The notes: generated from the letters alone by a model not told the origin. A stretch of 64,000 nucleotides of DNA from Pseudomonadales bacterium (GCA_020632265.1 JACKFW010000001.1:140223-204222); one strand, 5' to 3'. Shown: positions 5,678 through 63,137, counted from the first letter of the stretch. Made by a program: numbers and translations.

Positions 5678-5771
5678 TTTAATATTAGAACGTCTGTGGT
5701 CTATATTCCAAAGATGTAGTAGAATTAGAACGTATCCTAAGAAGATATAATTAAAAAATAGAAAGGTATCT

Positions 5772-6053: not shown

Positions 6054-6134
6054 AGTTTTGATTAAAACCTCTTATAAATAATTTATCTTCAGGTCCAAAA
6101 TCGTATTTGGACCTCTTAAGTACAGGGTTAAGTT

Positions 6135-6722
6135 ATGAAAATTTTGTTTGCTTCACAAAATAAAGGAAAGCAAAAAGAAGCAAAGATTCTCTTTAAAGAT
6201 CTAGCCATTGATCTAGTTTTCCCCGATGAATTTAAGGAATTTGAAAATTTTGATGTTGACGAAACTGGCAAAACTTTTGCTGAAAATGCAACTTTAAAGG
6301 CCAAAGCCTACGCAAAACAGATAAATTTACCATGTATTGCAGATGATTCCGGAGTAATCATTGATGGAATGAATGGACTTCCTGGAGTTCATAGCAACAG
6401 ATGGTTTAATGGTACTTCAGATGAAAGAAATCAAGAAGTTTTAAATCGCTTGAAAAATAGAACTAATAGAAATGCTAGATATATCACTGTTGCTTGCTTT
6501 TATGATCCAAATACAAAAAAATGTGTTATATTCGAAGGTGTCCTTGAAGGCTCTATTGGTACAAAAATTATTGGAAACACTGGATTTGACTACGATAGAA
6601 TTTTTATTCCAAACGGATTTGATAAAACCTATGCTCAGCTTGGGGAAAATGTAAAGAATTCCACTTCTCAAAGAGCAAAAGCATTTAAAAAAGTTAAAGA
6701 CTACATAAAAAAATATAGATAA
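6135..6722 (+). CDS. rdgB: non-canonical purine NTP pyrophosphatase (Ham1/RdgB family)
   Basis: N-terminal ILFASQNKGK-E motif, ADDSG motif and about 195 aa are typical of the Ham1 family. Confidence 0.8.
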   Translation: MKILFASQNKGKQKEAKILFKDLAIDLVFPDEFKEFENFDVDETGKTFAENATLKAKAYAKQINLPCIADDSGVIIDGMNGLPGVHSNRWFNGTSDERNQEVLNRLKNRTNRNARYITVACFYDPNTKKCVIFEGVLEGSIGTKIIGNTGFDYDRIFIPNGFDKTYAQLGENVKNSTSQRAKAFKKVKDYIKKYR

Positions 6723-6750
6723 CGGTTAAAATTTTGGCCTAGAAAGATTA

Positions 6751-9834: not shown

Positions 9835-9888
9835 AATTATTTCTAATTTCCATAACTATTTTGAGTTTCCATAGTTATTCTTAATTTA
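9832..9888 (-). repeat. three tandem, roughly 19-bp copies of the typA start region (ATGGAAAYT...TATGGAAATTAG)
   Basis: The minus strand reads ATGGAAACTCAAAATAGTT, then ATGGAAATTAGAAATAATT, then ATGGAAATTAGAAATATTG, the last being the typA start. This creates two 9-codon uORFs (METQNSYGN*, MEIRNNYGN*), each overlapping the next ATG. Confidence 0.7.
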
Positions 9889-10120
9889 AATTATTATTAC
9901 AAACTCTTAATTAAATAATCATAAATCTAAAAACTCGATACAATCTCTTGGATAGAGATTTAAGCGAGAGTTCTATAACATTCAACATGAAAATAAATTA
10001 ATCTTATGAACTTGCGAACGTTGTATTATACAACATTTATTAACACATTGCTCATTCCAATAAGATATTTTCATAGTAATTTTAGTTTATTGCTCAAGTT
10101 GGGTTGATTCTAAACATAAT

Positions 10121-11794: not shown

Positions 11795-12089
11795 AAAATA
11801 CTACTCTTTAATGACTGCTCAAAATACGCAATTATTTGATGAATTTGAAGTAATCAACAATGAATTTGCAATAAATAGTAAATCGCGCTTAATTGCTACA
11901 AAATTTCATAAAACAGGACTAGAAGTCATGGATATAATCAGATTTTGGGAACGAAAACTCTGTTCAGGAATGGAAAGAGGTAATAATAATATTTATTCGG
12001 ACAAACTAGCAGATAAATTCTGGAACGAAGTTAGAAAACGTTTTTCTCATATTGATATGGTGGGTCTTAAATCTAAAACTCTAGACTAA
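11775..12089 (+). CDS. hypothetical protein
   Basis: ORF of 104 aa overlapping the glgP end by 20 nt. Confidence 0.35.
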   Translation: MAIQKFKKYYSLMTAQNTQLFDEFEVINNEFAINSKSRLIATKFHKTGLEVMDIIRFWERKLCSGMERGNNNIYSDKLADKFWNEVRKRFSHIDMVGLKSKTLD

Positions 12090-12116
12090 ATCACTCCAAT
12101 CAAGCTATACTTAAAT

Positions 12117-13796
12117 ATGCCTGTTTTTCTTGAAATTAGCCTCGTACTTACATTAGCAACATTTGTTTCATTTGTGATGAAGTTTTTAAAACAACCCTTG
12201 ATTGTTGGTTATATTTTGACCGGAATTATTGCTGGGCCTTATGCGCTTAATATTTTACATTCTCATGAAACTTTGGAACTTTTTTCCAAACTAGGAATTA
12301 CAATATTACTTTTCATCATTGGAATTCATTTGAGTCCAAAAGTTATCAAAGATTTGGGAACTACCTCTCTTTTAGTAGGGGTTGGACAAATATTTTTTAC
12401 TTCTTTAATTGGATTTTTAATTGCTCTATTTTTAGGAATTGATAAAATCGCTGCAATATATGTTTCAATTGCTCTAACTCTAAGTAGTACAATAATTATT
12501 TTAAAATTAATATCAGATAAAGGTGATACTCATAAACTCTATTCAAAGCTAACCATCAGTTTATTAATAATTCAGGATGTAGTTGCAACTTTTATTTTAT
12601 TACTAGTTTCTTCATTTAGTGAATCTGTTGATTTAAATGTTGCAAATCCACTTGGATTAATGCTACTTAAAGTTGTTGGGTTAATCGTGGGTTTTTCCAT
12701 AATTCTTAAATTTATTGTTCCAAAACTATCAAAATTTGCTTCTAACAATCAGGAGTTGCTTTTTCTTTTTTCCATCTCATGGGGACTGGGAACAGCTATT
12801 GCTTTTAACCTAATGGGACTATCAATTGAAGTTGGTGCCCTAATTGCGGGAGTAGCACTTTCTTCTTCAGAATTTTCAGAGGAAATTAGTTCTAGGCTTC
12901 AACCTTTAAGAGACTTTTTTATAGTTTTGTTTTTTATTTTCTTAGGCGCCAACATGATATTAGACATTTCAATACAATCACTACTACCAATTATTGTACT
13001 ATCATTATTTGTCTTAATTGGCAACCCAATTATTTTAGTGATTATCATGAATTTACTTGGATATCACAAAAAAACTAGTTTTATGACTGGAATGGCCATT
13101 GCTCAAATAAGTGAGTTTTCGTTAATTTTAGCAACTCTAGGAATGCAAGTTGGTCATTTAAGTAAGGAAATTGTAACCTTAATTACCTTTGTTGGTCTAA
13201 TTTCAATTTCGGGATCTTCCTATTTTATTATTCATGCTGAGAAAATTTATCCATACATAATAAATCTATTAACATTTTTAGAATTTAGAAAGCATAATAT
13301 TAATAAGGAAAACAAATCCAAAAAATATGACATATTTTTGTTTGGCTTTAATAGATCGGGCAATGACCTTCTAAAGACTTTTCAAGAGATGAATTATAAA
13401 ACCGCAGTAGTTGATTATGATCCTGAAACCAAAGAAAGATTACCAAAAAAATTCAAAGGATTCTTTTTTGGAGATGCAAGTAGCATTGAATTTTTAGATA
13501 CATTATCATTTTCAAAAAGTTTATTAATAATTTCAACATTACCTGATATTGAAACAAATAAATTATTAATAAAATACGCACAAAAACATAAATTAAAAAC
13601 CGTAGTGATAATATATGCTCACACCAAAGATGAAGCGCTTTCATATTATGAAACTGGAGCAGATTACGTAGTCATGCCTCACCACATTGGAGTTAAACAC
13701 ACTGCAAATTTACTAAGGAAAACCGGAATTAATACAAATAGTTTCAAAAGAAAGAAATATCTACATCTTAAAGAATTAGAAACCTCATTTAATTAA
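12117..13796 (+). CDS. monovalent cation:proton antiporter (CPA2/Kef-type) with a C-terminal TrkA-N/RCK-like domain
   Basis: About 12 TM segments, then a Rossmann-like IFLFGFNRSGNDL segment. Confidence 0.7.
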   Translation: MPVFLEISLVLTLATFVSFVMKFLKQPLIVGYILTGIIAGPYALNILHSHETLELFSKLGITILLFIIGIHLSPKVIKDLGTTSLLVGVGQIFFTSLIGFLIALFLGIDKIAAIYVSIALTLSSTIIILKLISDKGDTHKLYSKLTISLLIIQDVVATFILLLVSSFSESVDLNVANPLGLMLLKVVGLIVGFSIILKFIVPKLSKFASNNQELLFLFSISWGLGTAIAFNLMGLSIEVGALIAGVALSSSEFSEEISSRLQPLRDFFIVLFFIFLGANMILDISIQSLLPIIVLSLFVLIGNPIILVIIMNLLGYHKKTSFMTGMAIAQISEFSLILATLGMQVGHLSKEIVTLITFVGLISISGSSYFIIHAEKIYPYIINLLTFLEFRKHNINKENKSKKYDIFLFGFNRSGNDLLKTFQEMNYKTAVVDYDPETKERLPKKFKGFFFGDASSIEFLDTLSFSKSLLIISTLPDIETNKLLIKYAQKHKLKTVVIIYAHTKDEALSYYETGADYVVMPHHIGVKHTANLLRKTGINTNSFKRKKYLHLKELETSFN

Positions 13797-31651: not shown

Positions 31652-32620
31652 TTACTTGCTTTCAATTTCAATTTCTGCCTCTACCATTAATTTTACTAAT
31701 TCCTCAAAACTAATTGATGGTTTCCATCCAAGTTTTTGATTAGCCTTAGTTGGATCACCAATTAATAAATCAACTTCAGCGGGACGATCAAATTCGGGAT
31801 TATGTTTCCATACGGATTTCCAATCTTCAATGCCGGCATATTTGCAACTAAGTTGTAAAAATTCTTCAACTGAATGAGTTTCACCTGTGGCAACTACAAA
31901 ATCTTCAGGTTCATCTTGTTGAAGCATTAGCCACATGGCTTCAACATAATCTTTAGCATATCCCCAATCTCGCATTGAGTTTAAATTTCCAAGTTCAACA
32001 TTTTCTTGCTTGCCTAACTTAATTCTAGCAACTGCATTGGCAATTTTTCTGGTAACAAACTCCAGCCCTCTTCTTGGAGATTCATGATTAAATAAAATCC
32101 CTGAAGTTGCAAACATATCAAATGATTCTCTGTAATTAACAGTGATCCAATGACCATAGACTTTAGCAACACCATAAGGAGATCTTGGATAAAATGGAGT
32201 CGATTCTTTTTGCGGAACTTCTTGAACTTTTCCAAACATCTCACTTGAGCTTGCCTGATAAAATTTAGCGCTTGGACATGCTAATCTTAATGCTTCCAAA
32301 ACTCTAACGACTCCTAACGCTGTAAACTCGCCGGTTAAGACTGGTTGATCCCAACTGGCTTTAACAAATGATTGTGCTGCCAAATTATAAACTTCATCTG
32401 GTTGAACATCTTTCAAAGCATAAGTTAAAGAATGCTGATCAATTAAATCTCCTGAAATCAATTTCAGGTTATCATTGTGAATAATATGCTGAATGCGTGC
32501 AAAATTTTGAGTGCTTGTTCTTCTTGTAAGGCCATAAACCTTGTAGCCTTTTTCCAAAAGAAATTCGGCTAAATAAGATCCATCCTGTCCAGTAATACCT
32601 GTAATAAATGCTTTTTTCAT
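31652..32620 (-). CDS. gmd: GDP-mannose 4,6-dehydratase
   Basis: N-terminal [23 protein letters not shown] is nearly the canonical GMD signature. SDR YxxxK present. Confidence 0.9.
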
Positions 32621-32653
32621 AAAAATTTCTCCAGTGATATTTATTTAAACCTC

Positions 32654-33613
32654 TTAATTATTTTTATTACGAATTGAATCTATTATTCTAGCCAAAGAGT
32701 CATCGAGAGATATAGTTGGAGTCCAACCTAATGATTTAATTTTATCATTTTTTGCTACCATTTTAGGAATATCAAGCGGTCTTATTCTAGAAGGATCTTC
32801 TTCTATATCAATTTTTACGATTGATAAAGAAGCCAGCTTCTTGACAACTTCACTCATTTTAATACCAACCCCACTGCCAATGTTATAAACTTCTCCAGTT
32901 TCACCTTTATTCATTACAATAATATATGCAAGCATCATGTCTTTAACATCTGTGAAATCTCTAATTGCAGATAAATTTCCAACTCTTAATTTATCTTGAG
33001 AGCCATTTTCAATTGCAACAATTTGAGTTGCAAATGCTGGTATAGCAAAATCCGGCGACTGTCTTTCACCAATATGGTTAAATGGCCTAACAGTCACTAT
33101 GTCTAGATTAAAAGATATGTGATATGAATAAGCCAACATGTCTTGAGCAATTTTTGAAACTGCATAAGGATTAATGGGTCTTAATTTATGATCTTCATCG
33201 CAAGGAAGTTCATCTTCACTTTTACTTACTCCATACTCTTCAGCTGAACCAACAACTAGCAATCTTGCTTTAGGTACGAAATCTTTTACAGCTTTTAGTA
33301 AATTCAATTGCAAAGTAATATTGTTGGCAAGTAATTCATCTGCTTTTTCAAAACTTTTACCCACGTATGCAAACGAAGCCAAATGATAAATTTGATCTGG
33401 AACTAATTCTTTTAATAAAATATTTGTATTTTCGGCATTTGTTAAATCTAGTTGATGAATATTTGCTTTACCAATTAAATTGGCTAAATATTCAGACCCA
33501 CCACCAAAAGATGTTGTGTGAATGTTTTCGAAGCCTTTAGATTGAAGTGCTTCAACTAAATGTGATCCTGCAAAACCAGTTCCGCCAGTAATTAGTATTT
33601 TTGGTTGATCCAT
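32654..33613 (-). CDS. SDR-family NAD(P)-dependent epimerase/reductase, likely GDP-4-keto-6-deoxy-D-mannose reductase (Rmd)-like
   Basis: ILITGGTGFAGSHL Rossmann motif, YAVSK (YxxxK), and a position adjacent to gmd. Confidence 0.65.
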   Translation of the reverse strand: MDQPKILITGGTGFAGSHLVEALQSKGFENIHTTSFGGGSEYLANLIGKANIHQLDLTNAENTNILLKELVPDQIYHLASFAYVGKSFEKADELLANNITLQLNLLKAVKDFVPKARLLVVGSAEEYGVSKSEDELPCDEDHKLRPINPYAVSKIAQDMLAYSYHISFNLDIVTVRPFNHIGERQSPDFAIPAFATQIVAIENGSQDKLRVGNLSAIRDFTDVKDMMLAYIIVMNKGETGEVYNIGSGVGIKMSEVVKKLASLSIVKIDIEEDPSRIRPLDIPKMVAKNDKIKSLGWTPTISLDDSLARIIDSIRNKNN

Positions 33614-33631
33614 AATGTCCTTAAAAATTAA

Positions 33632-48806: not shown

Positions 48807-49730
48807 TTAAAGTTTTAGTAACTCCTCTAAGTGATCTAATGATTTTGACAATTGGATATAAATTGGCTCCAAATCCCTAAGAATTCTTTCATAAAAAAGC
48901 CTTCCAAAATTTTCTTCATCTCCATTAATAATCTTATTATTTAGTTCCGAAAACTCATTATTAATTTCAAGAAAATTTCGTTGTATTTCTTGATATGCTC
49001 TATCTCTCTTTGCCTGAATAACCGCGCCAACTTCAGAATTAACCTTACTTTCTTTAATATCTTCATCAATGAGAATTGACACATCATAAACAGCTTGCAT
49101 TTGACCAATTCTGATCAAAGATAATGCTTTATAGGTAATCTGATTATAGGGCTCTACAAAAATCTCAAAACTATCTGCTAATAAATTAACAGCATTTCTA
49201 TCTTTAGATAAATCAATATCATCTTGATGAAGCCGTAATGTAATAATTAATGATTCTATTTGTTTTAAACTCTGATCTTTTAAAGATATTTCCACACCAG
49301 CAGTATCTTCCAAAGTTGCGCTGATCAGTTCCAAATAGGTAATTAAAACCTTTGATCTATCTTTCATTGCTTGACGAGTTGCATTAACTGCATCTTCTAA
49401 AGCAGTCAATGTTTGAACATTAAAGTAATTGCTTTGGGCAACGTTAAATTCTTTAGCTGAATTTCTATATGCTTCAATTTGATCTCTGTATAAAATCTTT
49501 AAATCGATAATTTTTTGAGTATTTCTTTTTTTATTTAAAATTTGAGTTGAAAAAGATGCTGTATTTACATCTTCATTAATTTCTAATTTAGGAACTATTT
49601 CATTTGATTGAGAACTCTCTTGAGAAGGCATTCCTTCTAATTCCTGAGCCTTTATTGATGGAACAAAAAGAATACTTAAAATTAATAATTGGATTACTAA
49701 GAATATTTTATAAAAAGATAATTTTCTCAT
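48807..49730 (-). CDS. hypothetical secreted protein
   Basis: 307 aa with an N-terminal signal. Coupled to the downstream ORF. Confidence 0.45.
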   Translation of the reverse strand: MRKLSFYKIFLVIQLLILSILFVPSIKAQELEGMPSQESSQSNEIVPKLEINEDVNTASFSTQILNKKRNTQKIIDLKILYRDQIEAYRNSAKEFNVAQSNYFNVQTLTALEDAVNATRQAMKDRSKVLITYLELISATLEDTAGVEISLKDQSLKQIESLIITLRLHQDDIDLSKDRNAVNLLADSFEIFVEPYNQITYKALSLIRIGQMQAVYDVSILIDEDIKESKVNSEVGAVIQAKRDRAYQEIQRNFLEINNEFSELNNKIINGDEENFGRLFYERILRDLEPIYIQLSKSLDHLEELLKL

Positions 49731-50443
49731 TTTGATAATTCTCTATTTCTTGCAAAAATAATTGCCTCATGAAGAGATTCAAAGGTTCCGGTATCTAACC
49801 ATTTCCCCTCAACTTGAGCTACATCTAATTTTCCTTCATGCAAATATAAATTATTAAGATCAGTAATTTCTAGTTCACCCCTTGAAGAAGGAGTTAAATT
49901 TAGAGTCTTTTCAATGACTGAGTGATCATAAATATACATTCCAGTTACTGCAAAATTCGATTTAGGGTTCTGAGGTTTTTCTTCTATTGAAATCACTTTA
50001 TTATTTTGATCAAACTCCGCTACTCCAAATCTTTCAGGATCAGTAACTTCTTTAACAAAAACTCTTCCACCAGATTCAAAGCTATTTATTGAGTCAGAAA
50101 AATTATCTTCATAAAGATTATCTCCTAAAATCAGGGTAACATTGTCATTGCCAATAAAGTTTTTCCCAATCAAGAAGGCTTGTGCTAATCCTTCGGGTTT
50201 ATCTTGAATTTCATAAGTGAACTTACAATCAAATTGACTGCCACTTCCAAGTAATTTCAAAAAATCACCAGCATGATCTGGAGCAACAATAATAAGAATA
50301 TCCTTAATTCCTGCACTTAACAATGTTTCAAGAGGATAAATGATCATTGGTTTATTATAAATTGGCAACAACTGCTTGCTAGTAACTTTAGTGAGTGGGC
50401 TTAATCGGGATCCTGACCCACCTGCTAAAATAATTCCCTTCAT
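49727..50443 (-). CDS. sugar-phosphate nucleotidyltransferase (RmlA/glucose-1-phosphate thymidylyltransferase-like)
   Basis: N-terminal MKGIILAGGSGSRLSPLT signature. Confidence 0.8.
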   Translation of the reverse strand: MKGIILAGGSGSRLSPLTKVTSKQLLPIYNKPMIIYPLETLLSAGIKDILIIVAPDHAGDFLKLLGSGSQFDCKFTYEIQDKPEGLAQAFLIGKNFIGNDNVTLILGDNLYEDNFSDSINSFESGGRVFVKEVTDPERFGVAEFDQNNKVISIEEKPQNPKSNFAVTGMYIYDHSVIEKTLNLTPSSRGELEITDLNNLYLHEGKLDVAQVEGKWLDTGTFESLHEAIIFARNRELSK

Positions 50444-51898: not shown

Positions 51899-53182
51899 TT
51901 AATATATATTTATATATCCTAAGTTATAAATAGGTGAATAATTTCCGGCTTGATCAAAAAACTTTATTGCAAAATATTTATTACCTAAATCTAAATTATC
52001 AATTAATATATTTTCATTATGGTCGGGATTAATTATCATTTGAGAGTCTTGGTATTTTTTGTGATTAGAAATTGCAATGACTTTGCTTTTTTTCCAATTC
52101 TCTTCACTTAATATATCATCATCTGAAACTCTAATTTGATATGAATTTTTGGAATTAAAAATTTGATTAACATTTTGAAGATTGGATTCTTTCGACGGAT
52201 AATCAAAAATGATATTTAATTGCAAATCTCCTTCAGCAAATAATTCAGCCCGTTCAAGATTTTTTGGAGAATTTAAGTCAACTTTGACTACTAAAAATTT
52301 TGATTCTTCAACTTTTTCCTGCGAATTAATGACATAATACTCAATTAAGTCATTTTCAAATGCATCATTGATCTTAAGAATATATGGACTTAAAATTTGA
52401 TAATGATGTTGAATAATTTTCCCTTCATTATTGGATTTATATTTAACAAAAATTTTTGAATTTGACGGCAATGCTTCAAAAGCTATTTGATCACCAATTT
52501 TTGCTAAAAATTTAGAAGTACTAATTTCTTTTAACATCAGCGATGGCGGATCCATTTCATCAAATGAATTTTGTGAAAAAAAATTAACAACAAAATGATT
52601 ATTATTTGAGTTAAAATTTTTTAAATTTATAAAACCTTGATTCCAAACTCCACTTTCTGAAAAATCATGAAATGCATACCTGTCATTTACTTTAACTATA
52701 AAATTTGGATCATCAAACCCATCTAATTTTTCTTGAGTTTCAATTTTATATTGAAATGATAAATATTGATTTTCAGTAGTATAAAAATTTTGAATATCCA
52801 TACTTGAATCATTTTTTGAAACTAATTCATCAATAAAATATATATGATCGTCTTTAATAATTTTCACAGTAACTTTTGTAGGCTCTGATTCAGCGCTCAC
52901 AAAACCTTCATTGTTTATGTAAAAGTTTTTAAAAGGGTTAATTTTACTGACCAAATTAACTAACTTTATATTTTCAAAATCTCTGAAATTATTTGGAGCA
53001 ATATTTTTAACAATATCCTTGATCTTTGAATCAAAATTTAATGGCTGATCAATATTTGAAGAACCAAGAACACTATCACTTAAATCTTCATTTGGTTCAT
53101 TATTCAACACAGCAGTAAATAAAAAAATTATAGTAATAACTAAAATTATTATGCAAAATATATATATAATTTTCTTTTTCAT
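51899..53182 (-). CDS. hypothetical secreted protein
   Basis: 427 aa with an N-terminal signal anchor. Confidence 0.45.
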   Translation of the reverse strand: MKKKIIYIFCIIILVITIIFLFTAVLNNEPNEDLSDSVLGSSNIDQPLNFDSKIKDIVKNIAPNNFRDFENIKLVNLVSKINPFKNFYINNEGFVSAESEPTKVTVKIIKDDHIYFIDELVSKNDSSMDIQNFYTTENQYLSFQYKIETQEKLDGFDDPNFIVKVNDRYAFHDFSESGVWNQGFINLKNFNSNNNHFVVNFFSQNSFDEMDPPSLMLKEISTSKFLAKIGDQIAFEALPSNSKIFVKYKSNNEGKIIQHHYQILSPYILKINDAFENDLIEYYVINSQEKVEESKFLVVKVDLNSPKNLERAELFAEGDLQLNIIFDYPSKESNLQNVNQIFNSKNSYQIRVSDDDILSEENWKKSKVIAISNHKKYQDSQMIINPDHNENILIDNLDLGNKYFAIKFFDQAGNYSPIYNLGYINIY

Positions 53183-53317: not shown

Positions 53318-53389
53318 GGCCCCATCGTCTAGCGGTTAGGACACCAGGTTCTCATCCTGGCAGCCAGAGTTCGATTCTCTGTGGGGTCA
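53318..53389 (+). tRNA. tRNA-Glu (anticodon CUC)
   Basis: Manual fold: GGCCCCA acceptor; anticodon arm CCAGG-TTCTCAT-CCTGG; T-arm CAGAG-TTCGATT-CTCTG; 3' acceptor TGGGGTC; discriminator A. Confidence 0.85.
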
Positions 53390-53574
53390 CAATATAAAAA
53401 AAGATCCATTTATGGATTCTTTTTTTATATTGTGGTCGCATAGTTTGAAAAGCACTCCGCCGAGCAAAGCGAAGCAGAGTTCTGACGGAGAGTGCAAAGC
53501 ACCCTCCTAATGCAAGTGAACCATCCTACAGAAATCATAAATTGTGGCGAATCGTAGATTCTCTGTGGGGTCAC
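53385..53574 (+). repeat. 190-bp repeat R190, copy 1; begins inside the tRNA-Glu 3' end and ends with a second copy of the tRNA 3' 18-19-mer (gattctctgtggggtcac)
   Basis: About 95% identical to 55448..55637. Contains a terminator-like hairpin (aaaaaaagatccat-tt-atggatcttttttt) and a GC-rich segment. Confidence 0.8.
53396..53427 (+). terminator. intrinsic terminator after tRNA-Glu (A-run, gatccat-tt-atggat, T-run)
   Basis: Palindrome read directly. Also present, with a perfect stem, in R190 copy 2 at about 55459..55490. Confidence 0.55.
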
Positions 53575-53596
53575 ATTTTTGTTAAGAACACACTAA

Positions 53597-54097
53597 TTAT
53601 TCTATATTATAAATTTCATTCATCACAAAATGAAAAGCGTCACCAAATTTTTTAGGATTTTCCTTTAATTCTTTCAGTAACTGATCCCTTGAAAATCTTT
53701 CATAAGAATCAGATTCATGATTCAACACAGGTTCCTCATCGGAATATATTTCATAAACAATAAAATAATGGTTTTCTTTTCTTCCAATAACTTCTCTGTT
53801 GTAGATCTTCTTACCAACAAACTTAAAATCAAATTCTGTAATACCCAATTCTTCTTCAGTCTCTCTTCTTAATGCTTCTTCTTCAGTTTCACCAGACCGA
53901 ATATGTCCTCCAACAGGAGATACATACTGTCCAGCATCTTGTCTATCATTTGCTTGTTTTACTAAAATCCAGTTACCGTGTGAATCAATTAGTTCTGAAA
54001 TAATAACTCTATGTAGAATGCCTTTTTCATGACACTCTACTTTAGGACAATTACCTGTTACTTCATCTTTTGCATTTACTATGTCAACTATTTCCAT
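53597..54097 (-). CDS. Nudix hydrolase
   Basis: Nudix box GGHIRSGETEEEALRRETEEELGI. Confidence 0.8.
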   Translation of the reverse strand: MEIVDIVNAKDEVTGNCPKVECHEKGILHRVIISELIDSHGNWILVKQANDRQDAGQYVSPVGGHIRSGETEEEALRRETEEELGITEFDFKFVGKKIYNREVIGRKENHYFIVYEIYSDEEPVLNHESDSYERFSRDQLLKELKENPKKFGDAFHFVMNEIYNIE

Positions 54098-54123: not shown

Positions 54124-55335
54124 CTACTCAACTTTTACAAACTTCTTTTTACCCTCAAGAGTAACCTTCATAACTTTCATATAAATCAAAATAAAAATAA
54201 ATACTCCTACTGCATACAAAGCAGAAATTAGCAGTGCTGTTCTTAATTCAAAAGTATCAAATACATATCCAGCAACAATAGCTAATACAGATGCCACTAA
54301 AGCCTCATATACCTTAATACTTGAAAGAGTTGTTGCCCTAATCTTTGATGGTATATGCTTTTGTCCAAAACTATTTATTATTGCTTCTTTAAATGGCTCA
54401 GATACATAAAAAACCATTGCAGATAATAAACCTACAAAACCAAAAAACTTGCTCATTCCAAACAACCCTATTGCAAAAATAAACCAAGAAATAAACATTA
54501 GTTGGAACTCACTTAAATACTGTTTTAACTTTGCAAACTGAGAAACTACTATTGCTTGTAATCCATAAACAATTGCAACAAAAACTCCTAACCATTTAAC
54601 ATCAAATAGTTCTAAACCTAAAATGTATGGCTTATCAACTGAATGGATAAAGTAGTGGTGAAACCCATATAGCAATGAGACAAATAACGTAATAAAAAAC
54701 AACTCTTTTGAAATTAAAATATGCTTTAACCCTGCAAATACATTTAGCTCTTCTTCAACAATACTTTCTGAAGCTTTTTTTTCAGATTTCATAAACCAAA
54801 CTATTACAGCAGAAATGCAAAAGAATACTGCTAAAAGATAATACGGATAATTATGATTTATCGAAAACAAATATGCACCAATAATACTTCCTATAGCAGC
54901 TGCTATATAATTAACACTTCCACTGTAAGAAATAATTTCATCATATATTGAAACTTTTTTTTGAGAATCTAAATAATCATAAATATATGCTTCAAGAGAA
55001 CCAGAAATAAAAGAAATACCTAACATCCAAACTGCAGCAAAGAATGCAAACTGGATAGTAGTTTCTAAACCAGTCCAAATTAACGACGTTGCTGTCATTG
55101 TAATTAAACCAACAATAACACTAGCTTTTCTTCCAAATTTATCACCAAAAAAACCTGTTGGAATTTCAAACAAAAAACCAGCTACAGAAAACACTCCAAA
55201 AACTATGGCAATGTCTGCATAACTTAAGCCTTTTGCTAAGAAAAATAAGGCAATAATTACGTTGATTGGATATAATCCATAAATGAATTTATATAGTATG
55301 TATAAAAATAAGGTTTTGTCTTTGAGATATTTCAT
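54124..55335 (-). CDS. MFS transporter
   Basis: 12 TM segments and a GDKFGRK-type MFS motif between TM2 and TM3. Confidence 0.75.
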   Translation of the reverse strand: MKYLKDKTLFLYILYKFIYGLYPINVIIALFFLAKGLSYADIAIVFGVFSVAGFLFEIPTGFFGDKFGRKASVIVGLITMTATSLIWTGLETTIQFAFFAAVWMLGISFISGSLEAYIYDYLDSQKKVSIYDEIISYSGSVNYIAAAIGSIIGAYLFSINHNYPYYLLAVFFCISAVIVWFMKSEKKASESIVEEELNVFAGLKHILISKELFFITLFVSLLYGFHHYFIHSVDKPYILGLELFDVKWLGVFVAIVYGLQAIVVSQFAKLKQYLSEFQLMFISWFIFAIGLFGMSKFFGFVGLLSAMVFYVSEPFKEAIINSFGQKHIPSKIRATTLSSIKVYEALVASVLAIVAGYVFDTFELRTALLISALYAVGVFIFILIYMKVMKVTLEGKKKFVKVE

Positions 55336-55386: not shown

Positions 55387-55445
55387 CAATATATAAGACG
55401 TAGCCTCTCGAGGTTTTCAAGAAATGGTTCAAACTGAGTTACCTT
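55387..55445 (+). repeat. repeat X, copy 1 (tatataagacgta..cctct..tggttcaaactgagtta.ctt)
   Basis: About 75% identity to 60361..60420. Immediately precedes R190 copy 2. Confidence 0.5.
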
Positions 55446-55447
55446 AA

Positions 55448-55637
55448 GGTCACAATATAAAAAAAGATCCATTTATGGATCCTTTTTTTATATTTTGGTC
55501 GCATAAATTGAAAAGCACTCCGCCGAGCAAAGCGAAGCAGAGTTCTGACGAAGAGTGCAAAGCACCCTCCTAATGCAAGTGAGCCATCCTACAGAAATCA
55601 TAAATTGTGGCGAATCGTAGATTCTCTGTGGGGTCAC
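55448..55637 (+). repeat. 190-bp repeat R190, copy 2, ending with a third copy of the tRNA-Glu 3' 19-mer
   Basis: Direct repeat of 53385..53574 with about 9 mismatches. Confidence 0.8.
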
Positions 55638-55783
55638 AAGTATCGTTTTGTTCAGTGCGACCCGTAAGGGTGCGCAGAAAATCCCGATAAAACCTACTAA
55701 TTTTTCTTCAACTTCTTCAAAATGTCGTTTTAGATCCTGTAATTATTTACAAAGTTTTTTATAATGATATACTTCGATGTACT

Positions 55784-57049
55784 ATGAATGTAGAAAAAAC
55801 TCCCAAACATATTATTCGAGCCGTAGTTGATACTCTCCAAGAATGCAACCTTAGATGCCAGTACTGTCACCCGGGTCATACCTGGGAAAAGAAACACTTG
55901 TCAGCTAATCTTATAGAACAAACACTTAGTGAGGCAGAGCAACGTGGTTTATTAGAAGTTACTTTAACTGGTGGAGAAATCACACTCCATCCCGAATTGG
56001 TAAAAATCTTGGAGTCAACTCAAGTTTTAGATCGTACAGTTTCAACTCTCATTACTAATGGCACAACCATGACCCCTGAATTAGCTAGACAGTTTCGTGA
56101 TTCTAACGTTTCCAGAATTTGTACCAGTATCGATGGCCCAGATGCCGGTACACATAACACATACAGGGGAAACTCATTTGACAGAGCAATAAATGGCTTG
56201 CGTTTACTGCAAGAAACGGGAAAACCAATTACCGTTATCACTGTTGCCCACCACAAAAACTACGAGCATGTTCTTGAACTAAGTAATCTCCTTGCCAAAG
56301 AAGGACTCGCGGCAGAACATCACATCTGTGCTCCATCATATTCTGGTACTGCCAAAGATAACTATGAAGAATTTAGATTGAGACAAGAAGAGTTTTTTGC
56401 TCTGCAACAAATGGTAGATGATTCATATCAGGATTTAAAAAACCAAGGATTGTTTGTTACTTTCAACTCTTTTTGGCCCGCTACTGGAGAAAGAGCAAAA
56501 ACCAATAACTCCAGGACAATTACTCTAGTTCAGTTAACAGAACAGCTAAAAGATTGCTATATCATCGTCCGTCCAAATGGTGACGTTAGGCTAACTGCTG
56601 CTGCATGGGGAAGAGAAACTATTGGTAATGCAGTAACGGGAAATCTTCATACTGACAGCGTTAAAATCGCTCTTAATCAAGCTGAACAAATATACAATCA
56701 AGGTTTAGTGAAGCAACTTCCAAGAGAGATCGAGGCTGTTCACAAATTTCATTACGGGAAAGATGTCAATCCTGCAATAACCAATAAGATACTTAGTGAT
56801 AAAGAAAGTGGTGCCGGTTTAGTTCAAATGGTACCAATTAAGCCACTCTCGGAGTCAGATCTGTTCCAGATACCTCTTTCCGAAGAACAAATGCTGTCTA
56901 TTGCGAGCAATCTCCAAATGCAACCAGACAGATACAGGCTTGTTAACATTGCTGGCAATTCATACGTACTGTTTGATAGGCTGACAACCCACATTACTCT
57001 TCTCAAGCCTGAGGAAGTGCTTATGATTGTTGGCTTAGGAAGTCACTAA
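55784..57049 (+). CDS. radical SAM domain protein
   Basis: CNLRCQYC = CxxxCxxC at residue 21, and TLTGGE glycine-rich SAM motif. 421 aa. Higher GC than its surroundings. Confidence 0.8.
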   Translation: MNVEKTPKHIIRAVVDTLQECNLRCQYCHPGHTWEKKHLSANLIEQTLSEAEQRGLLEVTLTGGEITLHPELVKILESTQVLDRTVSTLITNGTTMTPELARQFRDSNVSRICTSIDGPDAGTHNTYRGNSFDRAINGLRLLQETGKPITVITVAHHKNYEHVLELSNLLAKEGLAAEHHICAPSYSGTAKDNYEEFRLRQEEFFALQQMVDDSYQDLKNQGLFVTFNSFWPATGERAKTNNSRTITLVQLTEQLKDCYIIVRPNGDVRLTAAAWGRETIGNAVTGNLHTDSVKIALNQAEQIYNQGLVKQLPREIEAVHKFHYGKDVNPAITNKILSDKESGAGLVQMVPIKPLSESDLFQIPLSEEQMLSIASNLQMQPDRYRLVNIAGNSYVLFDRLTTHITLLKPEEVLMIVGLGSH

Positions 57050-57051
57050 AT

Positions 57052-58440
57052 ATGCCTTTAAAAGAAGTTGACACAAGACTTCTAAGGGCGCTAAGTGAAT
57101 ACAGAGCTTTTGTTAGCGCTCTAGCCATTGAAACTGGCCAGCGATCCTTAATTAGAGATATCATACTTAGCGAGCCTTCTACTACATCTGCTAAAATTAT
57201 GAAGGCTGTGGGGATTTCGGCCGAGGAGTTAGTAAAAATCTATCGAGACTTGCAAACGGATGAAGAATTTCAGTTAGCAGTCAACTCTCCTTACTATTCT
57301 CGCCGTCTCATGTTTAATGTCGCGCGAACAGTCGTGCATGATCTGGCCTCTGACTCTGATTATACTCAGAGATTGATCTCAGGAGATCCAGTATCTTCAA
57401 GAGTAGTTGAACTTCATACAACCAAAGGAACTTGTAACTACAACTGTGTGATGTGCTTATGGTCAGATAAAGGGGAACGTACCTATGACACAGCTCAGAT
57501 GAAGGGTTTTGGCTTAATGCAAACTGAGGAATGGAAAAACACTTTAGCAACCATCCGCGAGTTTGGTACCAAAGTAGCTGTTTTTTCTGGTGGAGGTGAA
57601 GTATTGCTGAATAAGGATTTTTTCAGATTGCTGGCGTTCTCACATTCGGTTGGTCTGAAAACCCAGCTCTATACTAGTGGATACAACATGACCCATCTTG
57701 AGGAGGAAGAGTGGGGAGAATTGTTGAACATGGATCGAATTAGATTTAGCATACACTCATCAAATGAGGGCACATACAATGATATTGTTAGTATGCCAGA
57801 ACACGCTCATGCACTCACTAAAGTTGACAACAACTTAAAGTTATTATTAGAGAAACGAAATATCGTAGGCTCCGATTTAAAAATAGGTATTGGATTCGTG
57901 ATACAGCCACTAAATACAATGCAGGTAGAGGATATTGTTGAGTTTGCAAAAAGGACTGGAGTGGACTATCTCAACATCCGCCGGGATGAAATTTTAGTAA
58001 CCAATCCTCTGGATCAAGAATCAGAAGTCGAGCTCAGAAAGCAGTTATTACGCATTAGACAAAACATTGTTAATGGCGTTTATGGGAATTTAGAAATTGA
58101 TTTTTCGGACAATTTAGTTGCATTTATGAACGAGGAGAAATACTTACTACCTCAAGTGCCACAATGTGTTATCAAACACTTTAGACCCACTATTAATCCG
58201 TATGGTCTGTGGAATTCGTGTGATCTTAAAGGTGAACCAATGTATGCGGATCCAGATTTTGTGATTGGTGATCTACATCAGGATGGTGTTGTAAAAATTT
58301 TGGCTCGCACACAGCAAACAACTATCCCTGCAGCATGTACAAGTTGTATGCCCAGTGGTCAAACTGGAAATGCTATTTTCACTAAATTACTTCAAGATCA
58401 CGCTTTGGGGATTGATTTTAAAGATCAGCCATTTTTTTAA
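57052..58440 (+). CDS. radical SAM domain protein with an N-terminal extension of about 110 aa
   Basis: CNYNCVMC = CxxxCxxC at about residue 128, and FSGGGE. Start lies 2 nt after the preceding stop, consistent with an operon. Confidence 0.8.
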   Translation: MPLKEVDTRLLRALSEYRAFVSALAIETGQRSLIRDIILSEPSTTSAKIMKAVGISAEELVKIYRDLQTDEEFQLAVNSPYYSRRLMFNVARTVVHDLASDSDYTQRLISGDPVSSRVVELHTTKGTCNYNCVMCLWSDKGERTYDTAQMKGFGLMQTEEWKNTLATIREFGTKVAVFSGGGEVLLNKDFFRLLAFSHSVGLKTQLYTSGYNMTHLEEEEWGELLNMDRIRFSIHSSNEGTYNDIVSMPEHAHALTKVDNNLKLLLEKRNIVGSDLKIGIGFVIQPLNTMQVEDIVEFAKRTGVDYLNIRRDEILVTNPLDQESEVELRKQLLRIRQNIVNGVYGNLEIDFSDNLVAFMNEEKYLLPQVPQCVIKHFRPTINPYGLWNSCDLKGEPMYADPDFVIGDLHQDGVVKILARTQQTTIPAACTSCMPSGQTGNAIFTKLLQDHALGIDFKDQPFF

Positions 58441-58897
58441 TCACGTCTTTTACCGTTTGACTTGTCGGTGTATTAGACTGATCGATATCACGAAAACTAA
58501 CTTTGACGACGTCCTTCCCGTTTCCCTTGGTCACAAATTTTCCTGATACTTCATAGATAAAATAGAATTTTCGGAAAGTTTTCCATGCCTGGTGAGATTC
58601 TAAATCATAAAATAATTCATTAGCAGAATAAATAAGATTATCTTCACGAATAGATTCATCAATCAGAACGAGGCCAGTCTCTTCCCAGAATTCCCTACGG
58701 AGCGCTTCTTTTTCGGTCTCACCCATTTCAACACCACCACCAGGAAACTCCCATAGGTTTGATTTCGAATCCTGAACCATTAAAAATAATCCACTCATTT
58801 TATACACAGCATAGACTGCAATACGCTGAATTAAGTCAGCCTCTAATACTTGGTGACTCTTGCCTTTGGCATCTTGAATTTGTATGAATGTATTCAT
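58418..58897 (-). CDS. Nudix hydrolase
   Basis: Nudix box GGGVEMGETEKEALRREFWEETGL. Confidence 0.8.
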   Translation of the reverse strand: MNTFIQIQDAKGKSHQVLEADLIQRIAVYAVYKMSGLFLMVQDSKSNLWEFPGGGVEMGETEKEALRREFWEETGLVLIDESIREDNLIYSANELFYDLESHQAWKTFRKFYFIYEVSGKFVTKGNGKDVVKVSFRDIDQSNTPTSQTVKDVIKKMADL

Positions 58898-59574
58898 TAT
58901 TGATTAGCCTCTGTTTTATGTATGCCTGTGGTGGTTTTCAAGAAGAAGTGATTGCCGTTCATTTCTAAAACAACGTAGGCTGTATTTTCAATTGAACCTT
59001 TTGTTAATTCATCAAAGGTTGAAAAACCAATTTTCATTAGCAAAGATTTCATAAGTGCACCATGAAAAACAACTAGAATTGAAAGACCCTTATAGATCAA
59101 CTCTAATTCTTTTATAAAGGTTAAAAAACGCAAGGCTGCTTCTTCAAAAGTTTCCATGTCTTCGCTAATTCGGAAGTTTACCTTTTCCTGCTGAGATAGT
59201 CGCCGAAAAGTATCTGGTACTATATTGTGTCGATCAAAAAAAATTTTGTGTAAGTTGCCGGCACTGGTTTCACGGATACGTTGAGAAGTGCTCACTGAAA
59301 GTTGGTGACGGACAGCAATAATCTCTCCTGTTTTTTGGGCTTTTTTAGCATCGGATGAAAAGACCGCATTCAAATGAATGTTTTGAAATTTTTCTGAAAG
59401 TATCGTGGCCTGCTCGATGCCCAGGGATGTAAGGTCGCTATCATGCCAAAGTGAGGAATCCTGACTTGCTCCAGCATCAGATAGGACATTAGTTTGAGAT
59501 CGAGCATGTCTAACTAAGTAAAATATGGTCGATGGTGGAAAATTTTGAGGAGATTTGTTCATAACTTGAAACAT
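58897..59574 (-). CDS. histidine phosphatase (phosphoglycerate mutase-like) family protein
   Basis: N-terminal LVRHARSQ (RHG-like) and C-terminal VVFHGALMK second-His motif. Overlaps the Nudix gene by 1 nt. Confidence 0.6.
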   Translation of the reverse strand: MFQVMNKSPQNFPPSTIFYLVRHARSQTNVLSDAGASQDSSLWHDSDLTSLGIEQATILSEKFQNIHLNAVFSSDAKKAQKTGEIIAVRHQLSVSTSQRIRETSAGNLHKIFFDRHNIVPDTFRRLSQQEKVNFRISEDMETFEEAALRFLTFIKELELIYKGLSILVVFHGALMKSLLMKIGFSTFDELTKGSIENTAYVVLEMNGNHFFLKTTTGIHKTEANQ

Positions 59575-59795
59575 TTTTTATTAACCAACAATATCCTTAT
59601 TATACTCTACCGCTATTATTAGTAAGAGTTTATATTCTTGTTTATAAATAATTTCCTAGTTGATTAGGTAGCTATTTAAACTAAAACTATCTTAGACCTA
59701 TAATTACTTGAGGTGAAAGTCGTGCGGTGAGAATCCCATTGCGGTCACAAATATCGTAAAGTTCAGCGCTTCTTGAAAGAACTCGTGAGGTAGGC

Positions 59796-60104
59796 TTGAT
59801 GAAAGCTATGGGAATGAAATCATTTGAGATACGAGATTTATTTATGACAGAATCTATGATTATGGGATTTTTTGGAGGAATAGGAGGAATAATTTTAGGA
59901 TATGTTTCGGGAAAAGTCTTAGGAATAATTCTTTCATCATTTGTTATTGCAAAGGGTCTAGGATTCATTGATGTGTCATATATTCCGTTTCTATTTGTTA
60001 CAGTAATTTTCTTTTTATCATTGATTGTGGGGATTATTACAGGAATATATCCAGCTAAAAGAGCTACGAAAATAAGTGCTTTGAATGCTCTTAGGTATGA
60101 ATAA
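59796..60104 (+). pseudogene. C-terminal fragment of an FtsX-family ABC transporter permease (gene remnant)
   Basis: Last two TM helices plus the canonical C-terminus IYPAKRATKISALNALRYE. The N-terminal roughly 300 aa are missing. TTG/ATG start with no upstream domain. Confidence 0.55.
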
Positions 60105-60360
60105 AGAAAGCTAATAAACAATATGCTTATATCTAATTAAACCATAACATATCAAAGTAATCCTTAAACATAGAAATATGCTTCAAGAATATTTGGAGTA
60201 TGATCGCCCAATACTAATCCAGCAAGTAAAGAGCCTAATCTAGTTTTTTTCTGCCGGCCATTTTTGACAAGAACTTTTAGTTAACTACAATATTTTTCAA
60301 GGCAGTGTCTGGCTATTGGTGTTAGTAGTGATAAATATTTTTTATTTCCTCTCCTGTCTC

Positions 60361-60420
60361 ATTATATAAGACGTAACTCCTCTAGCTCAGCTAAAAGTGG
60401 TTCAAACTGAGTTATCTTGG
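60361..60420 (+). repeat. repeat X, copy 2
   Basis: Shares tataagacgta, cctct and tggttcaaactgagtta with 55387..55445. Confidence 0.5.
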
Positions 60421-60534
60421 ATTCACCAAATTTAATTCACATAAAAATAATCTTATCGGGCTCTTCCTAAGACTTATCAAAAATGTTATACTTTTGGGTA
60501 TAATCTTAACTAAGTAACAAATAATAAGGTTTTT

Positions 60535-61045: not shown

Positions 61046-62353
61046 ATGGTAGAAAATGACAGAAGAAGACGCTTATTTACTTCGCTTATTGAAACAGGTC
61101 GGCGCTATGTAGAAGAAAGCAATACAGACATAGCTGTAGAACTTAGCTTAGAAGCATTAGTTGGACTTTTTGCGCTTATTACTGCCATAGAAGCAGGAAA
61201 AACACATCTTGTCTCTGTTAATGCAATTGCATTAGATAAATACATAGACAACCCACAGTTACTGCAAATTGGTAGAGAAAAATTAAATAATTTAGAAGCA
61301 GGTTTATTAGAACTCTCTGAATCTCTTAAAACCCTAAGTTCTGAATGGAGAAGAAATTATAGAAAATCAAGAACAGTGATGAAATCTCGAACTACAACTG
61401 ATTGTGATTCTAAGGGACACTGCACTACTAGTACAGAATTTTATACTGAAACTGAATACTATTGGGATGAACCAAATGAATGGACATCACTCGGACTAGA
61501 TCACAATACAATATCCAGTTGGCAAAATTCTATTAATTCTCAAATAAATAGCGTTAACTCTTCATACAATTCACTCCCAAACACCCCTACCTTCGTGGAT
61601 GGCTATGATACATACAGAGTTACGGCAACTCCACTAGATACAACTAAACGGAGCTTTATCACCACAATTGGCTTTGCGTCTGCATCTGTTGGTTTTGCGT
61701 TCTATGAAGAAGTCATCACCGCTCTCGCAAAATATTATGGAGGATATGACTCAATACTAAGAAAATTTGCAAATACAAGAGTTAAGCGAAGATCTTTCTT
61801 AAAATTTATTGCAGGCTCCTTCGCTATCGATAAATTAAAAGAATGGAATACAACATTTGCAAAAGAAAATTCTGGAGTTAAGGAAAAAATAGAAGGAGAG
61901 ATTAAAAGTACCATAAAGAATATTAAACTGAATGATGAATTAGCAATTCAAACACTACTTGGATCAAACATAAACAGCATCATTTATACACATAAAATTA
62001 TTTCAGAAATACTTGGTGCAGCACTAAATAATAACGGCAACGGAATTGAAGACTATGCAGTAATTAGACCATTACTAGATAATGTGGTTGATCAGAATCA
62101 AAATAGAGGAATCATTTTGGAAGCCTACACCAAAAATGGCAATACAACTGAAGTCTCACAAGAGTTAAAAGACATTGCTTCACATGTAAAAGCTGATAGG
62201 TATATCCAAAGCCTCACTGCAGAGCAACAATCACAAGCAACATGGAATGCCATTCTACAAGTTGTTATTCTAATTGGGGCGTTTACAGGAATTGCCCTTA
62301 CTGCAGAAATTGCACTCGTTGTCACAGATGAAGTCTACAGAAACTTTAACTAA
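61046..62353 (+). CDS. hypothetical protein
   Basis: 435 aa with an N/S/T-rich central region and hydrophobic segments. Confidence 0.45.
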   Translation: MVENDRRRRLFTSLIETGRRYVEESNTDIAVELSLEALVGLFALITAIEAGKTHLVSVNAIALDKYIDNPQLLQIGREKLNNLEAGLLELSESLKTLSSEWRRNYRKSRTVMKSRTTTDCDSKGHCTTSTEFYTETEYYWDEPNEWTSLGLDHNTISSWQNSINSQINSVNSSYNSLPNTPTFVDGYDTYRVTATPLDTTKRSFITTIGFASASVGFAFYEEVITALAKYYGGYDSILRKFANTRVKRRSFLKFIAGSFAIDKLKEWNTTFAKENSGVKEKIEGEIKSTIKNIKLNDELAIQTLLGSNINSIIYTHKIISEILGAALNNNGNGIEDYAVIRPLLDNVVDQNQNRGIILEAYTKNGNTTEVSQELKDIASHVKADRYIQSLTAEQQSQATWNAILQVVILIGAFTGIALTAEIALVVTDEVYRNFN

Positions 62354-62612: not shown

Positions 62613-63137
62613 ATGAGTATTAAGATCCTTTCAGCAATATATGAGACCTTATATCTAGAATATTATATATACATCTGTCATAATATTCCTATGCCAGAGC
62701 AAATAAATACTATTATTCCTACAAAAGATGAGTTAAATCTTCGGGAGCAAGAGCCTGAGGAAAGATTATTGGGGAGTCAGGTAAATAAACTAGCAACAAG
62801 AGGCCAAAGACTAGATTTTATTGAAAAAGCTGAATCAGATGCTTATGAAGAATACGATAGCGTACTTGTTAGAAAAGCGAATAAATTGCTTCTGAATCCA
62901 ATGTTAGAACCAATGGATAAAGAAAGAATAACTGCCCTTGTAAAAGACGCCACTCATTCCTTACAATTACTCGGTGCTGTTATTACCTCACTTGAAAATA
63001 AATTATCAGCCCCGTCAGAAAGAGCTGTTGTCAGCAATATGATTGATATTATAGAGAAATTAGTTTTAAAGGATTATAAAAACAGTAAAGAAATTTCTGG
63101 TACAGAAATTTATTCTCAAGACATAGAAACAATGTAA
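62613..63137 (+). CDS. hypothetical protein
   Basis: 174 aa. No motif. Confidence 0.4.
   Translation: MSIKILSAIYETLYLEYYIYICHNIPMPEQINTIIPTKDELNLREQEPEERLLGSQVNKLATRGQRLDFIEKAESDAYEEYDSVLVRKANKLLLNPMLEPMDKERITALVKDATHSLQLLGAVITSLENKLSAPSERAVVSNMIDIIEKLVLKDYKNSKEISGTEIYSQDIETM

Follow-up and report, generated by a model that had tools for sequence, protein, structure and literature searches.

The window considered here is a 64,000-nucleotide (nt) stretch, one strand, from a Pseudomonadales bacterium (GCA_020632265.1 JACKFW010000001.1:140223-204222). Between positions 55,784 and 59,574 it carries a compact cassette of four genes, which encode two radical S-adenosylmethionine enzymes, here called rSAM1 and rSAM2, a small Nudix hydrolase (Nudix1) and a histidine phosphatase. 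With moderate confidence, and by analogy with DesII, we propose that the DesII-type enzyme rSAM2 and its partner rSAM1 carry out a two-step radical tailoring of a nucleoside diphosphate (NDP)-linked (deoxy)hexose. The system is not of a new type: the cassette varies a known chemistry in a way not described so far, and no description of the module was found in the literature on tandem radical SAM pairs or DesII-like families. An initial annotation of the window had already suggested, in general terms, that a nucleotide-linked sugar undergoes radical chemistry. This idea is supported by the DesII-like character of rSAM2 and by its recurrent neighbors, among which are glycan clusters, 4,6-dehydratases, family 2 glycosyltransferases (GT2) and Nudix hydrolases. 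The cassette is laid out as follows (aa, amino acids):

55784-57049, plus strand: rSAM1, 421 aa, Radical_SAM (Pfam, 90.6 bits)
57037-57042, plus strand: AGGAAG, a Shine-Dalgarno-like motif within the 3' end of rSAM1, 9 nt ahead of the rSAM2 ATG
57052-58440, plus strand: rSAM2, 462 aa, DesII-type, Radical_SAM (Pfam, 44.3 bits)
58418-58897, minus strand: Nudix1, 159 aa, NUDIX PF00293 (56.6 bits, cutoff 21.1)
58897-59574, minus strand: histidine phosphatase of branch 1, PhoE/PGM-like, 225 aa, His_Phos_1 PF00300 (104.1 bits, cutoff 21.7)

A listing of open reading frames (ORFs) reproduced the four genes, their coordinates and their junctions as the initial annotation had placed them: 2 nt separate rSAM1 from rSAM2, the 3' end of rSAM2 converges on Nudix1 with a 23-nt overlap, and the start of Nudix1 has 1 nt in common with the histidine phosphatase gene. 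The position of the AGGAAG motif is consistent with translational coupling of rSAM2 to rSAM1. Other features described at the outset also stand. The cassette is higher in GC, 0.40-0.41 over 56-58 kb against about 0.25-0.33 in most of the window, and both radical SAM proteins have the CxxxCxxC and GGE motifs, which are invariant or at least 90% conserved in the family alignments. None of the four cassette proteins reached a curated family cutoff in comparisons with NCBIfam. At gathering thresholds the only Rfam matches in the window are two tRNAs, and there is therefore no riboswitch; scans for promoters and terminators gave no excess over the shuffled expectation.

The favored reading starts from rSAM2, in which five features are recognized, all on the plus strand:

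nt ~57094-57381 (aa ~15-110): N-terminal helical domain, from the AlphaFold2 model
nt 57433-57456: CxxxCxxC, C128/C132/C135, from the sequence and the family alignment
aa 180-183: GGGE, from the sequence and the family alignment
nt 58165-58221: twitch-type motif C372-x12-G385-x4-C390, from the family alignment
nt 58336-58347: C429-x2-C432, from the family alignment

The top NCBIfam match of rSAM2 is DesII (TIGR04426), at 58.1 bits against a curated cutoff of 450, and by sequence rSAM2 is a distant relative of DesII, not an ortholog. When a family profile built from 34 homologs was searched against all PDB sequences, DesII was found at E 3.7e-22, followed by MoaA at 5e-8. The AlphaFold2 model of rSAM2 (mean predicted local distance difference test score, pLDDT, 90) gave the same answer in Foldseek. 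It aligned with DesII (8hzv) over ~480 columns with a query template-modeling (TM) score of 0.67-0.70 and E 1e-19, and the second-best fold was SkfB, at TM 0.50. The structure of DesII comprises a six-helix N-terminal domain, the radical SAM core, and a C-terminal hairpin with two helices, and it binds a single cluster (PMC11434129). This three-domain fold is reproduced in the rSAM2 model, in which helices lie at residues 15-110 and 413-451 and the hairpin at 386-407. Since the match to DesII extends over the full length, the N-terminal extension is the helical domain of the DesII type. The initial annotation had taken these ~110 aa as a possible peptide-recognition domain, of the type called RiPP recognition element (RRE; RiPP, ribosomally made, post-translationally modified peptide). 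This idea did not survive: the modeled domain lacks a beta-sheet and is therefore not an RRE, and the alignment shows that it is kept in all family members, those in polysaccharide clusters included.

Four C-terminal cysteines, C372, C390, C429 and C432, are invariant in the rSAM2 family alignment along with G385; they had not been remarked on in the initial annotation. A CX9-15GX4C half-motif together with CxxC is the typical signature of a twitch domain. The CX12GX4C and CX2C motifs of rSAM2 thus imply a second, twitch-type Fe-S cluster, which the protein would bind in addition to the radical SAM cluster.

Two motifs are recognized in the partner enzyme rSAM1, again on the plus strand and from the sequence and the family alignment:

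nt 55844-55867: CxxxCxxC, C21/C25/C28
aa 63-65: GGE

rSAM1 shares only the radical SAM core with rSAM2. Its model (pLDDT 91) contains a twitch-like hairpin and places the protein in the SPASM/twitch structural clade. The family alignment contains no auxiliary-cluster cysteines, in agreement with the earlier observation that the first radical SAM protein lacks a Cys-rich SPASM tail; C113 is invariant and C182 nearly so. The closest solved folds include the RiPP maturases SkfB, SuiB and ChlB, the core is no nearer to anything than to BlsE, the cytosylglucuronate decarboxylase, and the last ~110 aa gave no known match. An identity look-up did not find the exact rSAM1 protein, and its cluster is present (P0060).

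The rSAM2 family is small. A word-indexed search returned 59 clusters among 5.8 billion, and in a full hidden Markov model (HMM) scan of 1.84 billion representatives 163 had E<=1e-30, about 25 of which form a tight family. The relatives of rSAM1 are more numerous, and many are encoded on the same contigs as rSAM2 matches. When genome contigs were scanned with the rSAM1 alignment, most matches reflected the generic CNLxCxYCH pattern, and only 5 of 80 loci proved to be true members. For the analysis of gene neighborhoods, annotated look-ups, a metagenome scan, and the HMM with in-house ORF analysis yielded 40 rSAM2 lineages, dereplicated at 90% identity. In 26 of the 40, or 26 of 34 that could be classified, rSAM1 lies directly upstream of rSAM2; eight have rSAM2 alone and six could not be assigned. 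One lineage counted as paired, L159, has a 952-aa ORF (8510-11368) that was considered as an rSAM1-rSAM2 fusion. The candidate was rejected on account of a 1-nt frameshift: the C-terminus of rSAM1 continues in the +1 frame and its stop lies just before the start of rSAM2. The frameshift is either an assembly error or a mark of a pseudogene.

The gene found 3' of rSAM2 depends on the lineage. Pfam-confirmed neighbors are a GT2 glycosyltransferase in 11 lineages, mostly convergent and overlapping, from high-GC Actinomycetota including Nocardia; an ortholog of Nudix1 in seven, the window included; and an aminoglycoside phosphotransferase (APH)-type enzyme in five, with two more from precomputed Pfam annotation. 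The three partner families are ones that act on sugar phosphates or NDP-linked sugars. A few loci also share F420-type LLM oxidoreductases. Where rSAM2 is found alone within glycan clusters, the surrounding genes encode GT4 and GT2 glycosyltransferases, Bac_transf proteins, UDP-glucose dehydrogenase, a flippase and epimerases or dehydratases of the short-chain dehydrogenase/reductase (SDR) type. In a neighbor-joining tree, drawn without support values, the solo members from glycan clusters form a basal clade, and the pairs with a Nudix partner, that of the window included, group together in one clade. No aminotransferase recurs among the neighbors of the 40 lineages or in the Pfam-annotated loci.

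In four lineages, independent of one another, a family member has as neighbor an NDP-hexose 4,6-dehydratase of the dTDP-glucose or GDP-mannose type. An RmlB gene is 64 bp from a solo rSAM2 in L140 (430 bits, cutoff 365) and another is 1.5 kb from a solo rSAM2 in L141 (438 bits); a Gmd-like gene, at 398 bits just below its cutoff of 415, is 330 bp from the family member in L129. In the fourth, a Saccharimonadales genome (L178), an RmlB gene, above the curated cutoff like those of L140 and L141, is beside a bona fide rSAM1 (612 bits), accompanied by a gene of the Nudix1 subfamily and an APH gene, and there is no rSAM2 within 7 kb. In the HMM scan, distant rSAM2-like domains were found fused to the sugar-acting PIG-L and GFO_IDH_MocA domains. 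The proteins P0209-P0285 are 1,000-7,840 aa long with a complete rSAM2/DesII-like domain, and some also have a PIG-L deacetylase or a GFO_IDH_MocA oxidoreductase domain. The window itself encodes two enzymes of NDP-sugar metabolism, both outside the cassette:

31655-32644: Gmd, 441 bits, above cutoff
49727-50443: RmlA-like thymidylyltransferase, 238 aa and thus a little short, 312 bits (cutoff 361)

Since the window genome encodes this RmlA-like gene and Gmd, NDP-hexose precursors are available. A second NDP-sugar SDR accompanies Gmd at 31655-33631; with the RmlA-like gene these are possible suppliers of precursors, unlinked to the cassette.

The two hydrolases are conserved to different degrees. 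Their catalytic motifs, both on the minus strand, are intact:

nt 58673-58741: Nudix1 box, G53-L75, an exact match to GX5EX7REUXEEXGU
nt 59506-59511: histidine phosphatase catalytic R22-H23, the RH motif, with H-G further downstream

Nudix1 is part of a separate subfamily that travels with rSAM1 and numbers about 70 clusters scoring above 100 bits; several members come from contigs of the same length as those with rSAM1 matches. In the four closest relatives of the window the gene converges on rSAM2, with an overlap of 23 nt in L092, L094 and L009 and of 39 nt in L013; a Nudix1-like gene is also found alone (L179). Nocardia brasiliensis (L180) has an operon of a gene for a 479-aa helix-turn-helix protein, an APH gene and a Nudix1-like gene, beside ArdA. 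The same operon adjoins a Thoeris-like ThsB_TIR/ThsA_Macro pair, with an unrelated SPASM radical SAM protein and an AAA_33 kinase nearby; all these features fall within 4672-7483 and 11200-13045. No specific equivalog cutoff in NCBIfam was passed by the histidine phosphatase, and comparison of Nudix1 and the phosphatase with solved structures gave no information on substrate. The order of conservation is rSAM1 > rSAM2 > Nudix > phosphatase. With the co-occurrence data this order identifies the radical SAM pair as the conserved unit; the Nudix is specific to one clade and the phosphatase is accessory. The four genes had been regarded initially as one unit, and this holds for rSAM1 and rSAM2, which alone are broadly kept.

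A possible, if somewhat doubtful, extension of these observations is that the functional unit consists of rSAM1, rSAM2 and Nudix1, and that the histidine phosphatase is a passenger with no obligatory role, like the neighboring module of a second Nudix (Nudix2) and a major facilitator superfamily (MFS) transporter. An ortholog of the phosphatase is present in only two of the seven Nudix-partnered lineages, the other being in the L090-L095 group (L094, 52% identity), and at that locus it is the least conserved protein, rSAM1 being 79% identical. Furthermore, the closest relative (L092) retains after its Nudix gene only a 44-aa remnant (~9846-9980), 75% identical to residues 149-192 (E 6e-18), a gene in the course of decay. 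The 1-nt junction with the start of Nudix1 is an argument to the contrary, as it indicates a single operon, and two lineages with 68% identity between their rSAM2 proteins both keep the phosphatase in that place. There is also the precedent of tunicamycin, in which accessory phosphatases raise flux though they are non-essential.

In the reading that we favor, tailoring of an NDP-(deoxy)hexose by the two radical enzymes, the substrate would most likely be an intermediate derived from an NDP-4-keto-6-deoxyhexose. By analogy with DesII, rSAM2 would abstract a hydrogen adjacent to a sugar hydroxyl, leading to oxidation or beta-elimination. A second [4Fe-4S] cluster at the twitch-type site could serve as the electron sink, as it does in related sugar dehydrogenases. 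rSAM1, which lacks auxiliary-cluster cysteines, would follow with another radical step, either on that intermediate or on the one after it. In the actinobacterial versions the product would pass to the GT2 glycosyltransferase, or the pair would work with an APH-type kinase. In the clade of the window, Nudix1 would cleave the NDP-sugar to a nucleoside monophosphate and sugar-1-phosphate, and the histidine phosphatase, where present, would free the modified sugar. Alternatively, both hydrolases may curb a reactive pool.

Several observations weigh against this scheme. The window cassette contains no NDP-sugar enzyme or glycosyltransferase, nor do its four closest relatives. Nudix1 is small and best resembles MutT-type (d)NTP or Ap4A hydrolases, with matches mostly within the Nudix box, and the Ham1/ITPase-like gene in one relative points to nucleoside triphosphates (NTPs). 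rSAM2 is just ~17% identical to DesII, and with a score of 58 bits against 450 the transfer of substrate by analogy with DesII is therefore weak. The putative auxiliary cluster of rSAM2 is read from a sequence motif, and the neighbor statistics rest on metagenomic fragments and in-house ORF calling.

Some of these points lead to the main rival assignment, which we consider unlikely though viable for the Nudix clade, namely that the cassette makes a nucleotide or nucleoside antimetabolite, or a viperin-like antiviral nucleotide, with self-protection. The two radical SAM enzymes would alter a nucleoside tri- or diphosphate at its ribose or its base, the Nudix hydrolase, joined by Ham1 in one relative, would hydrolyze the toxic triphosphate, the histidine phosphatase would yield an exportable nucleoside, and the adjacent MFS protein could export it. 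A Nudix with a canonical box, a histidine phosphatase, and the Ham1/XTP-dITP-diphosphatase-like gene that follows the phosphatase in L090/L091 do point to nucleotides, and NTP pyrophosphatases are the best matches of Nudix1. Precedents exist in thmABC, a direct one, where a kinase and an NTPase for self-resistance accompany the radical SAM enzyme (PMC12691670), and in the TunB, TunG and TunN proteins of the tunicamycin pathway. The cassette is small and mobile, and its context differs in each genome; in L089 it has a recombinase, GIY-YIG, SNase and AbiEii genes nearby, and in the window a transporter and a second Nudix are next door. However, this assignment leaves unexplained the GT2 partners of 11 lineages, the solo rSAM2 genes of glycan clusters, and the 4,6-dehydratases. 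The MFS gene and second Nudix are found in this window only, and the histidine phosphatase is being lost in the closest relative. The match to viperins is generic: against NF038283, with a cutoff of 180 bits, rSAM1 scored 51.6 and rSAM2 41.6, and in PADLOC, which returned for the cassette only generic pVip matches and one Nudix candidate model, the pVip scores were 44-58 bits, near those of generic radical SAM cores. Viral contigs held only generic radical SAM matches of 23-27% identity and no phage-borne copies, and neighborhoods are only occasionally mobile or defense-like. The viperin-like defense function entertained at first is therefore not borne out. A narrower form, which we rate as quite improbable, confines the chemistry to the Nudix-linked clade, with its small mobile cassette in low-GC, host-associated or reduced-genome bacteria. 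The product would be a nucleotide or nucleoside modified in its sugar, an antimetabolite or antiviral chain terminator made through a DesII- or viperin-like elimination and a second radical step, with the Nudix, with or without Ham1 or the histidine phosphatase, providing self-protection and release.

Maturation of a RiPP, in which both radical SAM enzymes would modify a precursor peptide recognized by the N-terminal domain of rSAM2, is very improbable. The resemblance of rSAM1 to SkfB, SuiB and ChlB speaks for it, as does the existence of tandem radical SAM pairs in sactipeptide clusters. Against it are the all-helical, DesII-like nature of that domain, its presence in glycan-cluster members, and the lack of SPASM cysteines in rSAM1. 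Moreover, clustering of small ORFs in ~25 paired loci gave no conserved candidate for the precursor contemplated earlier, the clusters being antisense shadows of GT2, Nudix and APH genes and Arg-rich high-GC noise, and the neighbor analysis revealed no recurring protease, transporter or RRE partner. Scarcely any weight attaches to a role as housekeeping cofactor or activase enzymes (MoaA, QueE, NrdG, PqqE, heme or NirJ-type), since the weak matches to many such NCBIfam models, confined to the N-terminal half, fall far under the curated cutoffs (in bits/cutoff, MoaA 64.5/284, QueE 17.6/206, NrdG 18.8/131, PqqE 57/381), and the family is very rare, patchy in distribution and mobile.

The setting of the cassette is that of an accessory region, with these features around it:

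53318-53390, plus strand: tRNA-Glu(CTC), with core genes to its left and accessory DNA to its right
53373-53392 (in the tRNA), 53557-53576 and 55620-55639, plus strand: copies of an att-like 20-mer from the 3' end of tRNA-Glu, the third matching at 20/20 and lying 145 bp upstream of rSAM1
53597-54097, minus strand: Nudix2, in the neighboring module
54124-55335, minus strand: MFS transporter, in the neighboring module
59731-59750, plus strand: degenerate fourth att-like copy, 15/20, with the GGTCACAA core kept, just past the histidine phosphatase gene

To the left of tRNA-Glu are core genes for SecD, an M50 protease, RRF and others. A 17-mer from the 3' end of the tRNA is present in three exact copies against 0.06 expected by chance, which supports a tRNA-anchored accessory region. 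The Nudix2-MFS module, found beside the pair in no other locus examined, sits between the two units of a 191-nt direct repeat (53385-53575 and 55448-55638, 97% identical); the repeated segment ends in the same 17-mer, and its second copy stops 145 bp upstream of rSAM1. The copy at 59731-59750 is possibly the right boundary of the cassette, though marginal by chance, p being about 0.1 by our estimate for a 15/20 match in 8 kb. No integrase was seen among the ORFs examined at 51.9-63.8 kb. In the annotated loci of relatives the contexts of the cassette are unrelated to one another. These unrelated contexts and the repeats at the tRNA identify the cassette as mobile accessory DNA, much as the initial annotation had it. 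The repeat pattern resembles tandem or serial site-specific insertion, and a series of insertions at the tRNA is probably how the cassette came in.

Further features were noted in the surroundings. An intergenic 72-nt direct repeat of 74% identity (55387-55458 and 60360-60431), which may be a promoter, a small RNA or an insertion scar, brackets the cassette together with a 102-aa C-terminal fragment of an FtsX-like permease (59687-60121, PF02687, 39 bits), over which runs a longer antisense ORF; lying at the cassette edge, the fragment is probably a pseudogene left over from an ABC-transporter permease. Large Asn/Ser-rich proteins of 427 and 435 aa, with no Pfam or PADLOC match, flank the accessory region (51899-53182 and 61046-62353). 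With 21.4 bits, under the threshold of 25, a 174-aa protein at 62613-63137 weakly resembles a family of putative Dot/Icm substrates. The Pseudomonadales label that NCBI gives to the source metagenome-assembled genome deserves a second look in view of the low GC (~0.30) and of the DUF3048 and DUF1189 genes.

Radical SAM enzymes with a known activity on nucleotide-activated sugars are very few; DesII is one of them, and hardly any of its relatives have been explored. The present work defines a rare, putatively cluster-bearing DesII-like subfamily that is usually tied to a second uncharacterized radical SAM enzyme, and wired according to lineage to glycosyltransferases, kinases or a dedicated Nudix. 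Its study could bring to light deoxysugar chemistry of a new kind, a cell-surface sugar so far not seen in Nocardia and related bacteria, or a small diffusible sugar or nucleoside in reduced-genome bacteria. The version in the window consists of four genes and is therefore a compact target for heterologous expression.

Among known systems, Gmm/NudD, the GDP-mannose mannosyl hydrolase, is a ~160-aa Nudix that hydrolyzes an NDP-sugar and is encoded beside NDP-hexose 4,6-dehydratase genes in colanic-acid clusters. Nudix1 differs in its fully canonical box and has no detectable specific likeness to the Gmm model, which was matched only by Nudix2, and weakly (19.8 bits). The tunicamycin pathway, compared by gene descriptions, offers a similar mix of enzymes in a nucleoside-sugar pathway: the radical SAM protein TunB, the histidine phosphatase TunG (~200 aa) and the pyrophosphatase TunN (152 aa), the latter two accessory. 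Some species have lost tunG or keep it in decayed form (PMC6105854; PMC6965331), and the histidine phosphatase gene of the cassette decays likewise in L092. The cassette has two radical SAM enzymes instead of one, and lacks equivalents of TunA, TunC, TunD, TunE and TunH.

In thmABC, a radical SAM enzyme, a kinase and an NTPase make 4'-thiothymidine, the NTPase conferring self-resistance (PMC12691670). Like the pVips, it is a minimal mobile cassette in which a radical SAM enzyme acts on the sugar ring of a nucleotide and a hydrolase or kinase serves activation or self-resistance. In contrast, the clade of the window has no kinase, most contexts of the family are of the glycan or NDP-sugar type, and there are no phage copies. 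With the SPASM/twitch sugar enzymes BtrN and BlsE, rSAM2 shares the twitch-type half-motif and CxxC. rSAM1 is without these cysteines, both cassette proteins have extra domains that are missing from BtrN and BlsE, and no curated SPASM/twitch model was passed (N_Twi_rSAM, 37.5 against 170 bits).

The closest comparison remains with DesII, the TDP-4-amino-4,6-dideoxy-D-glucose deaminase/TDP-quinovose dehydrogenase (8HZV, 8HZY). DesII binds a single cluster, whereas rSAM2 has four further invariant cysteines; rSAM2 is also paired with a second radical SAM enzyme, and has no DesI-type aminotransferase or macrolide context. The two nevertheless have in common the three-domain architecture, the CX3CX2C and GGE core, and the C-terminal beta-hairpin with two helices, and relatives of rSAM2 adjoin dTDP-glucose 4,6-dehydratase, the enzyme with which the pathway to DesII begins.

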